Of a stretch of 64,000 nt of DNA, positions 18,001 to 21,000 are shown piece after piece. Position 1 is the first letter of the stretch. Each line of letters opens with the position of its first letter. The position numbers were made by a program. This stretch comes from an uncultured Gemmatimonadaceae bacterium (GTDB lineage: Bacteria; Gemmatimonadota; Gemmatimonadetes; Gemmatimonadales; Gemmatimonadaceae), in NCBI GenBank assembly GCA_963822945.1, contig CAWGJO010000006.1, positions 1 through 64,000 on the forward strand. Direction: 5' to 3'.

Positions 18001-21000
18001 AAGCTGCCGCGGTTGCTCAGATGGATGGCGGAGTCGGCGGCCGACACCGCGACAGCGAGATCTTCGCGCGGCATCGTGGGCCCGTTGCAGGCGGCCACGA
18101 GTATCGCAGCGAGGATGGCGGTAACGGTTCCGGTGCGCATAAGGCCTCCGTGGATGGACGGCGGCAGAGCCAACGGTTTCGTGGGCCGCCCGTCCCTACC
18201 AGAGGTCAACTCCGTCGCCGCGCCGGCGGTCACGGAACGGGCATGAGGCCCTGGCGGGATGCGGAACCGTTACTTGACAGGTCCCCGATCGCCGGTGAAG
18301 ATTCGCGGCATGACGACGCACCTCTGCGCCTGGTATTCCTACTGGTATTCGACCTCATCCACGGGCCGAAGCTGGAGGCGTGCGCACAGGTAGTCAGGCG
18401 CTGGAGTCTTTCCTCAGGCGGTCCGTGAAGTTCACGGGCCGCCTTTTTCGTGTTCACCACCACCGAGGTCGCCATGCTGGACGCCGCACAGAAGCTCCCA
18501 ACCGAAGAGCCGCAGTTCATCGAGCAGCGGTGGAACGAGTACACCAACGAGCAGCACGACGTGTGGGCGCTGCTCTACGAGCGGCGGATGCGCGACCTGG
18601 CCGAGCATGGCAGCGAGGTGTATCTGCGGGGCGCCGAACGGATCGGGTTGTGTCCCGACTGCGTGCCCGACCTGCGCGTGGTGAACGAGAAGCTGCGGGT
18701 GCTCACCGGGTGGCAGGCGGTGCCGGTGAGCGGGTTCCTGCCGGCGCCGGAGTTCTTCCGCTGCCTGTCGCGGCGCCTGTTCCCCACCACGGTGACCATC
18801 CGGCCGCGGGAGCAGCTCGACTACCTGCCGGAGCCCGACATCTTCCACGACGTGTTCGGGCACGTGCCGCTGCACGCGAGCCCGGCGTTCGCGGACTATC
18901 TGCAGCGGTTCGGGCAGATTGCCTGCCGGGCGGAGCGGGAGGAGCAGATTGCGGGGATGGCGCGGCTGTTCTGGTTCACCGTGGAGTTCGGGCTGGTGAG
19001 GGAGGACGACGCGGGTGAAGGTGTACGGGAGCGGGCTCATCTCGTCGCACGGCGACGCGGCGCACGCGCTGGGCCCGGAGTGCGAGCGCCGGCCGTTCAG
19101 TGTGGACGCGGTGCTGGCGCAGCCGTTCGAGATCGACCGGATGCAGGACGTGCTGTTCGTGGTGGACACCTTCGGGCTGCTCTTCCACGCGGCGCAGGAG
19201 GCGGCGGACAGGTTGGGGATTCCGGACGCCGTGTGAGCGTGGCATCTTGGGCGGGTGAAGACGATCACGGGCAGTAGACGATGGGTGGTAGCCGCCATGC
19301 TGGCAGTGGTGGGCATGGCGGCGGCGTGCAAGCAGGGGCCCACGCCGCAGCAGGTGGCGCAGCAACAGGCCGAGCGCGCGCAGGAAGTGGCGAGTTCGCC
19401 CTGTCCGGCCGACGGGTGGTGGAAGGAGTGCAGCCTGACAGCGCGGCTGCTGGCTGCGGGGATGGGCGTGCGGCTGGACAGCGCGCCGGCCAGGGACAGT
19501 GCCATTGCCAAGCCGGGGCTGCTGTACCACATCGGCCGTTCGACGCTCAAGGTGTTCCTGTTCGCCGATTCCGCGGAGCGGAAGGCGGCGGTGGCGAAGT
19601 TGGACACCACGGGGTTCATCGGGTACGAGGCCACGCAGTCGTACCCGCCCAAGACGTCGATGCTGCAGTCGGCCAACCTGCTGGCGCTGCTGGTGAGCCA
19701 GAGCGAGACGCAGCGGCAGCGGATCGGAGACGCGATCACGGCGGGGGCGCCGCAGCCGGCGAAGAAGTAGGGACGAGGAGGAGCACGGCCAGCACGCGCA
19801 CCGGACGGTCGCTGTCGCCGCGCGCGTGGAGTTGGGCGAACGTGCGGACGGCGTTGAGCCAGGCTTCGTCGGGCATACGTGCTTCTGCAAGTTCCTGAAG
19901 CACCTGCTCGGCGCCGGCGCCGAAGGCCGAGGTGGCGGCACGGCGCGCGTCCCGGGTGAGTGGGGCGTATCGGGCACGCAGGTGCCGCGGGCTTCGAGAT
20001 GCGATGCCGTCGATGCGGCGGAGCATCCGCCGGCGCGCGACGGCGGTGCCGATGGTCGCCGGCTCGAGCAGTCCGAGCGAATCGAGTTCCTCGCCCCACT
20101 CGTGCACGCGCGCCACGACCTCGTCGGCGAGGGCGGAATCGAAATCCGTTTCGCCGCCGCCGGCCGCCTCGACCGCGTCGAGAACGGAGGCCAGGTCATC
20201 GCGGGTTCGCAGCAGGTCGCCGCAGAGCAACCGTGTTTCGCCCGCGGCCTGAACGACGGCGAGGTAACCGGGTTCTGCTGCATGCGTCGCCGCCACCAGC
20301 GTCGGACCGGCAGGACGATCCGGGGTGGGCGCGAGCCAACGCTCCAACGCCTGCGTGAGCCGGCCGGCCGCCGTGAGCGCGGCCGGAGACTCGACGGCGG
20401 GGGCAGCGAAGAGGCGCGGCACGATCGCCCCCCGGATTCCGACCGCGCGCGCGGCTTCGCGCAACTTGCGGCGCAGGTGGGCTTCGAGCTGGAGCAGCTT
20501 GTTCGCGCCGGCGGGCGGCCGCATTGCGTAGACGAAGACCTCATCGTGCGGCGATCCCATACGCCGGATCCGGCCGATGCGCTGTTCGCACCGCGCGGGA
20601 GTCCACGGCAGGTCGGCATGCACCACGACGTCGGCCGCCTGCAGGTTGACTCCTTCGCTGAACAGATCGGTGGTGATGAGCGTCCGGACGCGCTGCGCCG
20701 CCGGCACCCGATCGCGGCCGCCCGGCGCGAACTGGGCCAGGAGTTCACGCCGAGTGATCCGGCCGCCGGCGACGGCGCCTCCGCGGCCGGTGAGCATGGC
20801 GACCTGGCCGTACGGAGCGAGGCGCCGGTAGAGCGCCTTCACGGTCTCGCCGAACTCGGCGAACACTACGATCTGTGAATCCGCGTGGCGGCGCATCACG
20901 TCCAGCAGCGCCTCGGCTCGGGTGTCGTCCGGATCGGGGTCCATCGCCAGGGCGTGCAGCAGCCACTCCACGCCGTCGCGGTGAAAGGTCGCTTCGTCGA

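Follow-up and report, generated by a model that had tools for sequence, protein, structure and literature searches.

The analysed window, a 64,000-nt stretch of contig CAWGJO010000006.1 from an uncultured genus of Gemmatimonadaceae, carries phhA, the gene for phenylalanine 4-monooxygenase, on the forward strand at 18474..19236, split at 19011 into 18474-19010 and 19012-19236. The gene is preceded by a compact element spanning 18274-18473 that comprises a -35 box, a 27-codon open frame and a terminator hairpin with a T run, the phhA ATG at 18474 lying 29 bases past the hairpin. On re-reading the sequence, we found all parts of this leader where a first-pass annotation had placed them. The phhA product is a Biopterin_H protein, and the intact ortholog of one relative, G016, matches the NCBIfam equivalog for phenylalanine 4-monooxygenase with 294 bits against a cut-off of 247. 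A Shine-Dalgarno-like stretch (18465..18468, forward strand) sits 5 bases before the ATG in a purine block conserved at 16 of 16 loci; because it lies outside the terminator, control would be exerted on transcription and not on ribosome access. In four relatives, phhA is followed by small frames that are related neither to one another nor to the window, and phhA is therefore treated as monocistronic. The one RNA run found, a soil metatranscriptome containing a tenth of the sampled words, yielded two contigs inside phhA (18671-18836 and 18961-18995); when the same RNA run was compared with 18200-19300, parts of the coding region were recovered and no contig fell on the leader.

The predicted leader peptide frame (18310..18393, forward strand) has 27 codons followed by TAG and is kept at 16 of 16 loci of the genus. 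As first described, its codons 8-13 (18331..18348, same strand) form a core of three Tyr, two Trp and one Ser, so that Tyr and Trp fill five of six consecutive codons, the kind of codon cluster that marks leader-peptide attenuators. At proteome frequencies of 2.31% for Tyr and 1.48% for Trp, at least five such codons in a six-codon window have a probability of 4.5e-7. Across six frames of the whole 3.97-Mb genome, only 8 windows reach that density, at 5 places, and no leader-like setting was found at the other four. Scans with the Rfam leader, T-box and riboswitch families returned no match at E up to 10 within 17800-18800, in keeping with the earlier observation that no Rfam entry covers the leader, and, at E ≤ 1, none at the his-leader locus of the window genome or at two Tyr-leader loci of relatives. 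The Rfam rows that did come up in these scans were rejected as sub-threshold chance matches. A regular-expression search of the window genome (G000) for further terminators of the same sequence found none accompanied by a leader.

Conservation within the genus is extensive. Leader and gene start are matched in 15 of 17 genus genomes, and all 16 phhA loci from these 15 genomes (G010 has two) hold the frame, the hairpin, the T run and the phhA start, exceeding the initial count of 13 of 15 loci plus the window genome. In the two genomes without a match, phhA is cut at the contig start (G009) or Biopterin_H is absent from a 99%-complete genome (G011). Among the 16 loci, both synonymous Tyr codons are in use at codon 8 (TAT 4, TAC 3) and at codon 9 (TAT 5, TAC 9), so that Tyr is kept although the nucleotide changes. 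At the G006 locus, two compensating one-base indels alter the peptide tail while the RNA and the stop position are kept.

The -35 box (18274..18279, forward strand), noted before as consensus-like, in fact matches the sigma-70 consensus at 6 of 6 positions. Its first five bases are invariant at 16 of 16 genus loci, and the same five recur 29-32 bases before the leader ATG at 15 of the 18 loci outside the genus that have an aligned ATG. A weak -10-like hexamer (18297..18302, forward strand), placed 17 bases downstream of the -35 box and 7 ahead of the leader ATG, agrees with the consensus at 3 of 6 positions, which explains why a simple promoter scan of the region reported 0 sites. Relatives share two bases of this putative promoter element, the A at position 2 and the T at position 6. 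With the start as picked by script, the distance from -35 box to ATG is 30-31 bases at 14 of 16 genus loci, and the loci L007 and L009 also have an aligned leader ATG. No Shine-Dalgarno-like stretch was found ahead of the leader frame. Given the fixed spacing, we predict a leaderless leader peptide, whose start codon would coincide with the 5′ end of the transcript or lie no more than about one base from it. The fixed spacing and the missing ribosome-binding stretch both fit leaderless translation, promoter geometry being the single line of evidence for it.

Downstream of the aromatic codons, the leader RNA can adopt alternative pairings (all coordinates on the forward strand). Hairpin P1 joins a 5′ arm (segment 1, 18338..18355), made up of the last aromatic codons and the next two codons, to a 3′ arm (segment 2, 18363..18378). 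Overlapping segment 2 is the 5′ strand of an antiterminator (18360..18368), a near-repeat of the terminator 3′ arm, which forms 9 pairs with a 3′ strand (18419..18427) inside the terminator 5′ arm. The small hairpin P2 (18378..18401) carries the leader stop codon (18391-18393) in its loop. The intrinsic terminator (18416..18448) consists of a 13-pair hairpin at 18416-18444, with 9 of 13 pairs G-C and a loop of 3 bases, and five T at 18444-18448. It had been described as a perfect 13-bp hairpin followed by five T; the 13 pairs and the T run hold, but one pair is G-U and not Watson-Crick, and is replaced by A-U in 4 of 16 relatives.

An antiterminator was missing from the first-pass annotation, and constrained folding supplied one. 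Unmasked, the RNA forms P1 and the terminator. When a mask covers 18310-18349, -18355 or -18359 and the transcript stops at 18428-18436, the minimum-energy fold contains exactly the 9-pair antiterminator, pairing 18360-18368 with 18419-18427, which wins only with a ribosome placed on the aromatic codons. In the full transcript, the terminator (-40.7 kcal/mol) outweighs the forced antiterminator (-30.1 kcal/mol) by about 10 kcal/mol, and read-through would therefore have to be kinetic. An intrinsic terminator thus stands between frame and gene and, in the constrained folds, an antiterminator excludes it and is itself excluded by P1, the arrangement of an attenuator.

Covariation bears on the same structures. 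Over 41 sequences, the terminated structure is paired in 90.4% of cells, with 21 of 36 pairs changing on both sides, and the terminator alone in 94.3%, with 8 of 13 pairs doing so; these counts lean towards the model's structure, to which the underlying alignment A3 had been fitted. The antiterminator pairing is kept in 92.2% of cells across 41 sequences, against 31-40% with its partner slid. None of 500 shuffles reached any of five measures for the terminated structure, and its slid controls gave 39-48%. Changes on both sides affect 7 of 14 pairs of P1 across the family and 3 of 6 pairs of P2. For the antiterminator, two pairs change on both sides, in one sequence each, a level that 25 of 500 shuffles attain; its covariation is weak because its sequence hardly varies.

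A scan of 185,579 species genomes for the exact pattern returned 20 stretches, 13 of them from the window's genus. The other seven (Acidobacteria, Amycolatopsis, three Actinomycetota, Sinorhizobium and Pseudomonas) have no terminator, look like chance or coding matches and were rejected. As the exact sequence is confined to the genus, a covariance model was needed to reach further. Built from the genus loci and used to find Tyr-rich leaders elsewhere, this model matched at family level in 56 of 151 genomes, representing 38 of the 77 genera sampled, and beyond the family in a few genomes from the same order and class. Carriers of the element include G278, G072 and G054, whose genomes are closed or nearly so. 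Among the weak matches of the model, no Tyr frame is present at L082, L084, L088 or L100, which count as false or terminator-only, and L089 has a Tyr run but neither start nor terminator.

The genes behind these leaders point to tyrosine. Of 45 examined Tyr-leader loci outside the genus, 26 precede phhA (Biopterin_H) and 17 precede genes for DAHP synthase, chorismate mutase and/or TyrA, the remaining two being one before an AraC-type gene and one cut off. Full operons of DAHP synthase, chorismate mutase and TyrA follow a Tyr leader in four cases, one of which, L076, comes from G004, a genome of the window's own genus, and further model matches in G106, G096, G154, G156 and G153 have a TyrA match 0.2-2 kb downstream. 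These operons are an independent functional link to tyrosine. In either target class, phhA (Tyr from Phe) or the DAHP synthase, chorismate mutase and TyrA operons, the regulated genes make the amino acid taken to be sensed. The DAHP synthase gene of the window genome, on contig 21, has no leader.

The leader peptides themselves agree. At 27 loci outside the genus, Tyr makes up 14.4% of leader residues, compared with 2.3% in the proteome, whereas Trp (1.2%) and Phe (2.2%) are at or below background; all 27, the best loci, have a Tyr-rich frame, with at least three Tyr in 25. With Tyr enriched and Trp at background, we take tyrosine to be the sensed amino acid, which lends support to the original guess that charged tRNA-Tyr is read. 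The leader core of the window's own genus does include two Trp codons among its six, and one of these never varies.

From what can be seen directly, namely the parts of the leader and how they are conserved, the alternative folds and the settings of the genes, we infer that the phhA leader is probably a ribosome-mediated transcription attenuator governed by how much charged tRNA-Tyr is available. The alternative folds, the codon bias outside the genus and the target genes all favour this reading, which the first-pass annotation had proposed as its boldest. Transcription would start about 7 bases past the -10-like hexamer, so that the RNA would begin at or beside the leader AUG, and the leader would be translated without a ribosome-binding site. 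With ample tyrosine, the ribosome would reach the stop codon at 18391 and P1 (18338-18355 with 18363-18378) would re-form in its wake; folding of the terminator (18416-18444 with its T run) would follow, and polymerase would halt 25 bases before phhA. When Tyr-tRNA is scarce in the cell, the ribosome would stall at 18331-18348 and occupy the P1 5′ arm. The freed 18360-18368 would pair with 18419-18427 before the terminator 3′ arm exists, and polymerase, with the antiterminator formed, would continue into phhA.

Alternative readings of the leader differ in what is sensed. Within the genus, shortage of either Tyr-tRNA or Trp-tRNA might open phhA, with Trp a signal equal to Tyr: Trp is present at codon 12 in 16 of 16 genus loci, at codon 8 in 5 of 16 and at codon 7 in 3 of 16, and by geometry a ribosome stalled at either Trp codon would cover the P1 5′ arm just as a Tyr stall would. 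We regard such a two-signal sensor as unlikely, since any Trp at all occurs in only 8 of the 27 leaders outside the genus, the Trp codon that never varies is part of the P1 5′ arm, which is nucleotide-invariant and in which RNA pairing alone may hold it, and no metabolic reason ties Trp shortage to phenylalanine hydroxylation. A more radical possibility is an RNA switch that needs no translation and binds a small molecule or protein reporting on aromatics, the frame being incidental. Much of the leader is indeed nucleotide-invariant, third codon positions included, and the his leader has a similar peptide tail, as though the RNA and not the peptide were constrained. This last concern, raised at the outset, finds its answer in the fold, in which the stretch encoding the tail serves as antiterminator strand in an RNA design common to both leaders. 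In the his leader, that same design carries six His codons in place of the Tyr codons, ahead of hisG, a codon swap that fits a codon-read sensor and not a ligand pocket. Moreover, the frame with its start at fixed distance and its stop is kept at 16 of 16 genus loci and in the family, Tyr codons survive through synonymous changes, and Tyr runs vary in number and place between genera yet stay Tyr. Together with the lack of any Rfam family, riboswitch or T-box match in the scans above, this makes an RNA switch of that kind very improbable.

A different doubt concerns the window genome only, where phhA could be a pseudogene and the element a relic that controls nothing useful. The extra base at 19011 shifts the reading frame and splits the gene, while all 14 relatives with a complete phhA have it in a single frame of 253-255 residues. 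We rate this as possible but doubtful. G016 is 99% identical to the window genome over leader and gene start, and its phhA, which differs by 8 substitutions and the one base, is intact; the window's leader is unchanged in every conserved column; and in a metagenome assembly of 45 contigs, a single-base error is no less likely than recent inactivation.

The metabolic setting suggests why such control might exist. Searches in which the controls matched in 14 of 14 placed prephenate dehydratase in 0 of 17 genus genomes, TyrA in 5 of 17 (it is absent from 12 of 17 and from the window genome) and chorismate synthase in 16 of 17; Biopterin_H is likewise present in 16 of 17, a pterin recycling gene lies at 1952-2215 of the window, and no homogentisate dioxygenase was found in the window genome. 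Without prephenate dehydratase and mostly without TyrA, PhhA is most likely the tyrosine-making enzyme of the genus, working from imported phenylalanine, and for a tyrosine maker end-product control makes sense. The window genome, which is 88% complete, does encode 4-hydroxyphenylpyruvate dioxygenase, and TyrA and leader-phhA occur together in five genus genomes, so that PhhA is not provably the sole Tyr source or purely anabolic. We lean, somewhat cautiously, towards the broader view that this branch of the Gemmatimonadaceae may be animal-like as regards aromatic amino acids, having lost prephenate dehydratase and in most cases TyrA, taking up phenylalanine and making tyrosine only via PhhA, under a leaderless Tyr attenuator that elsewhere also heads operons of DAHP synthase, chorismate mutase and TyrA. 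It would then be the first Tyr-specific attenuator regulon and the first case of a phenylalanine hydroxylase as an end-product-repressed biosynthetic gene.

On this interpretation, a Tyr-codon leader would preside over both known tyrosine routes, phenylalanine hydroxylation and the TyrA branch, in an abundant, barely cultured soil family. It could serve as a regulatory marker for the tyrosine-supplying gene of a genome; it hints that many carriers need external phenylalanine, which would be useful for cultivation; and, at about 140 bases, it offers a compact natural tyrosine sensor as a reporter candidate. It would also add a phylum to the short list of those with leader peptides apparently translated from leaderless RNAs. 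Literature searches found no report of leaderless translation in the Gemmatimonadota, nor of a phhA leader or a tested Tyr attenuator, subscription journals lying outside their coverage.

Attenuation by leader peptides is a textbook mechanism for Trp, His, Phe, Leu, Thr and Ile/Val, and in classic cases anti-antiterminator, antiterminator and terminator hairpins are mutually exclusive. In model bacteria, control of the tyrosine genes lies with proteins, TyrR and PhhR among them. Against this background, the phhA leader looks like a well-conserved Tyr member of a known mechanism, apparently undescribed. In the enterobacterial attenuators trpL-trp operon, pheL-pheA and pheM-pheST, as excerpted from a review (PMC11802643), a short frame rich in cognate codons and exclusive hairpins likewise precede genes that make or handle the amino acid concerned. 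The phhA leader differs in that it would sense Tyr, act on a hydroxylase and not on a de novo pathway enzyme, belong to the phylum Gemmatimonadota and, with no ribosome-binding stretch, start at the predicted 5′ end of its RNA.

The claim of novelty made for this leader by the first-pass annotation is narrowed by two precedents for tyrosine-related leader peptides. In Corynebacterium glutamicum, the aroR leader before aroF (DAHP synthase) is built around Phe-Tyr-Phe and reacts when Phe is limiting, Tyr availability having no effect (Neshat et al. 2014, as summarised in the relevant part of review PMC11802643). It resembles the Gemmatimonadaceae Tyr leaders as an aromatic leader peptide on a DAHP synthase operon, a target class common to both; the latter, unlike aroR, carry three to six Tyr in a run, their Phe content does not exceed background, and a phhA target is not known for aroR from that summary. 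The second precedent is Deinococcus deserti, for which the excerpt of PMC4007540 describes putative leaderless leader peptides, one of them for the tyrosine-tRNA ligase gene tyrS. These share a start codon at or one base from the transcription start, which is mapped there, a proposed attenuation and, in one case, a tie to tyrosine; they differ in that they are predicted elements, belong to a different phylum and precede genes for biosynthesis or for tRNA ligases, with no phhA or aroF-tyrA target in the excerpt. A looser parallel is offered by mycobacteria, in which leaderless polycysteine short frames tune a downstream operon in response to cysteine (bioRxiv 10.1101/834739, compared through its description only): the short frame is again leaderless and rich in a single residue, but that residue is cysteine and the hosts are Actinobacteria.

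For phhA itself, the nearest comparison is the phhABC operon of Pseudomonas aeruginosa, where, as described in PMC1173090, the protein activator PhhR acts at a sigma-54 promoter and substrate induces a pathway of Phe/Tyr catabolism. Both systems regulate the same enzyme family by aromatic amino acids. The phhA leader, by contrast, would combine RNA and ribosome into a sensor that we propose to be on when the product is short, following a biosynthetic logic.

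Re-reading and translation of positions 17900-18700 bore out the layout that the first-pass annotation had proposed in front of phhA, a Biopterin_H gene with its ATG at 18474. A -35 box at 18274-18279 matches the consensus at 6/6 positions, and a leader frame of 27 codons plus TAG (18310-18393) carries three Tyr, two Trp and one Ser in codons 8 to 13 (18331-18348). The terminator hairpin behind it (18416-18444), initially called a perfect 13-bp helix, does form 13 pairs around a three-base loop, nine of them G-C, but one pair is G-U; five T follow. At proteome frequencies of 2.31% Tyr and 1.48% Trp, the per-window chance of so dense an aromatic stretch is 4.5e-7; the whole genome, read in six frames, holds eight equally dense windows at five places, and the other four places lack a leader-like setting. 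As the missing Rfam row had indicated, no Rfam family matches the leader region when hits up to an E of 10 are allowed. A sub-threshold radC RNA row at 17845-17977 on the minus strand (E 0.41; 18.6 bits, gathering score 40) is most likely due to chance.

With the NCBI phenylalanine 4-monooxygenase equivalog model, the intact ortholog in the closest relative scores 294 bits, above the cut-off of 247. Compared with the 99%-identical relative G016, the window's phhA carries a single additional base at 19011 and is therefore read in two frames, 18474-19010 and 19012-19236; wherever a relative's phhA is complete, it is one frame of 253-255 residues. The additional base may be an assembly error or mark a fresh pseudogene. 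Reads from the lone RNA run found cover parts of the phhA coding region only.

Within the genus, leader and gene start were matched in 15/17 genomes; in G009 (72% complete) phhA sits at the very start of a contig, and G011, at 99% completeness, lacks any Biopterin_H gene. The initial count of 13 of 15 loci with frame and hairpin was right about conservation but too low: all 16 genus loci (two of them from G010) have an identical layout, and because kin are not independent these counts are descriptive rather than statistics. In the -35 box, positions one to five do not vary across the 16 loci. The frame, begun at the aligned ATG, spans 23 to 27 codons; behind it come the hairpin with its four to six T, then a ribosome-binding stretch rich in purines, and finally the start of phhA. 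G010 carries the leader-phhA unit in two copies, on contigs 13 and 23 (L016 and L006), with identical leader peptides and phhA genes about 88% identical to the window's.

The consensus fold comprises three hairpins: P1 (18338-18355 with 18363-18378), whose 5′ arm holds the last aromatic codons and the next two codons; a small P2 (about 18378-18401) with the stop codon in its loop; and the terminator. An antiterminator, which the first-pass annotation had not worked out, was found as nine predicted pairs between 18360-18368, partly inside and partly just before the P1 3′ arm and nearly identical in sequence to the terminator's 3′ arm, and 18419-18427 in the terminator's 5′ arm. Folding of the growing transcript was compared between bare RNA and RNA masked where a stalled ribosome would sit. 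Bare RNA formed P1 and left the terminator's 5′ arm available to its usual partner strand. When the mask ran from 18310 to 18349, 18355 or 18359 and the RNA was cut off at 18428, 18432 or 18436, the optimal fold contained precisely the nine-pair antiterminator around P2. In the full-length transcript the terminator state is more stable than the forced antiterminator (-40.7 vs -30.1 kcal/mol), so the choice between folds would be kinetic; in the classical trp leader the terminator state is likewise more stable once complete. A ribosome on the stop codon would be located just past the 3′ end of P1, so P1 could re-form behind it.

A covariance model built from 16 genus sequences matched 56/151 genomes and 38/77 genera of a family sample, and all 27 best loci outside the genus contain an aromatic-rich short frame. 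In an alignment of 41 sequences, pairing in the terminated structure amounts to 90.4% (39-48% with slid partners) and both sides change in 21/36 pairs; 0/500 shuffles attain any of five measures. This alignment was fitted to the model and thus leans towards that structure. The antiterminator is 92.2% paired, vs 31-40% with a slid partner, and shows little variation: double-sided changes occur at two pairs, each in a single sequence, a level that 25/500 shuffles reach. By eye, antiterminator strand and both terminator arms have changed together in loci L055 and L069. Beyond the family, 151 sampled genomes of the phylum yielded four further real cases, L096, L097 and L099 in another family of the same order and L098 (from the unpublished genome G240) in another family of the same class. 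L100, a weak match elsewhere in the phylum, has a terminator only and was not counted as a leader.

Whether the conserved second half of the peptide, alike in this genome's his leader, reflects RNA structure had been raised as a doubt, and rightly so. On contig 20 of the same genome, at about 770490-770700 (L104), a leader with six His codons and a terminator precedes hisG. It shares with the Tyr leader an 11-base identical block at the same place, which pairs with each leader's own terminator 5′ arm, and the peptide tails resemble each other because both encode the same antiterminator strand. The two, neither matching an Rfam leader family, appear to be copies of a single design in which the regulatory codons have been exchanged. 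Across the genus, the nucleotide sequence is invariant in the P1 5′ arm, in the antiterminator strand and in both terminator arms, and the peptide is little informative there. Just upstream of the invariant stretch, Tyr survives synonymous changes: it occupies codon 8 in 7/16 genus loci (TAT 4, TAC 3; Trp in 5/16), codon 9 in 14/16 (TAT 5, TAC 9) and codon 11 in 14/16. The G006 leader has lost one base and gained another 13 columns away, a pair of changes that alters the peptide tail but preserves the RNA and the location of the stop. Together, these paired indels and synonymous changes argue that the tail is constrained as RNA, and the aromatic run and the frame as codons. Elsewhere in the window's genome, runs of 6-7 Thr precede terminator-like hairpins on contig 21 (minus strand, near 291626) and contig 44 (plus strand, near 31780), in frames that are possible Thr or Thr/Ile leaders.

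Tyr and also Trp had been proposed as the sensed amino acids. In the 27 leaders outside the genus, Tyr makes up 14.4% of residues, Trp 1.2% and Phe 2.2%; 25/27 have three or more Tyr, encoded by TAC (59) and TAT (47). Because only Tyr among the three exceeds the proteome background there, the leader appears to sense tyrosine; the proposal holds for Tyr but probably not for Trp, whose codons seem to be a peculiarity of the window's genus, one of them lying in the invariant P1 arm.

That both known tyrosine routes appear to stand under one kind of leader argues most strongly for tyrosine as the signal. Behind the 27 first loci lie 17 Biopterin_H genes (one, L068, from the unpublished genome G022), eight DAHP synthases with a ferredoxin-like regulatory domain, and one AraC/Cupin_6 regulator; the remaining locus is cut off. 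Among 20 further regions fetched around weaker matches, 16 have a Tyr-rich frame (that of L092 requires a GTG start, judged by eye). Downstream are DAHP synthase, chorismate mutase and TyrA in L076, L077 (the same place as L056), L081 and L095; DAHP synthase and chorismate mutase in L083 and L092; DAHP synthase in L087 (cut off) and L090; chorismate mutase and TyrA in L079; TyrA alone in L078; and Biopterin_H in L080, L085, L086, L091, L093 and L094. The 45 distinct Tyr-leader places outside the genus thus divide into 26 at phhA, 17 in the DAHP synthase, chorismate mutase and TyrA group, and two others. G004, from the window's genus, has two Tyr leaders, one before phhA and a second (L076) before a TyrA operon, and TyrA matches lie shortly downstream of further model matches, outside the fetched loci, in G106, G096, G154, G156 and G153. 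At L057 (G144, contig 718), a Tyr-rich leader and terminator precede an AraC-type regulator with Cupin_6 and no tyrosine enzyme.

In the genus, prephenate dehydratase occurs in 0/17 genomes, TyrA in 5/17 (not the window's), chorismate synthase in 16/17 and Biopterin_H in 16/17; the searches for the first three were positive in 14/14 control genomes. In the family sample, prephenate dehydratase is present in 89/151 genomes and TyrA in 98/151, tallies that take in the unpublished genomes G022, G048, G049 and G147. PhhA, TyrA and prephenate dehydratase are absent together from G011. The window's genome has 4-hydroxyphenylpyruvate dioxygenase and no detectable homogentisate dioxygenase; because it is 88% complete, its single absences weigh little, and genus-wide absences weigh more. 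A pterin-4a-carbinolamine dehydratase, a phhB-type cofactor recycler, lies at 1952-2215 on the plus strand, 16 kb upstream of phhA rather than sharing an operon with it. This gene content suggests that the genus needs external phenylalanine, and the simplest reading is that these organisms make tyrosine from it, so it would make sense for phhA to be controlled like a biosynthetic gene, by shortage of its product.

The leader ATG has no ribosome-binding stretch upstream, whereas phhA has one. The -35 box lies 30-31 bases from the leader ATG in 14/16 genus loci (script-picked starts; the aligned ATG is present in L007 and L009 too) and 29-32 bases in 15/18 loci outside the genus with an aligned ATG; most of the nine loci without one again give about 29-31 once corrected by the offset of the Tyr-frame start. 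Allowing 17 bases for the spacer and six for the -10 element leaves seven bases before the ATG, so that, from geometry only, the leader RNA should begin at or adjoining the AUG. The -10 is weak against the E. coli consensus, and a promoter scan reports none. By eye, the Tyr-rich leaders of L099 (G209) and L089 (G146, contig 21) directly follow an apparent tRNA gene 3′ end; their 5′ ends might arise from tRNA processing instead of their own promoter.

Full-text searches, mostly outside subscription journals, found no literature on a phhA leader, Tyr-codon leaders, a hydroxylase T-box or leader peptides of Gemmatimonadetes. Of the novelty first claimed, the sensed amino acid and the phhA target stand, but the mechanism is of a known kind, apparently the classical attenuation by a leader peptide. 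Among tested aromatic cases, the nearest documented here is aroR before aroF in Corynebacterium glutamicum, which, according to a review, has a Phe-Tyr-Phe core and answers to Phe, not Tyr (PMC11802643). In Pseudomonas, PhhR activates phhABC for catabolism (PMC1173090), the opposite logic to the product-shortage control proposed for the window's phhA. For Deinococcus deserti, mapped starts have led to the proposal of leaderless leader peptides, and the supplement of that work lists a putative leader peptide of the tyrosine-tRNA ligase gene (PMC4007540). Relative to these systems, the sensed amino acid, the target gene and the phylum are new, and the probably leaderless start of the leader would be a further new trait.
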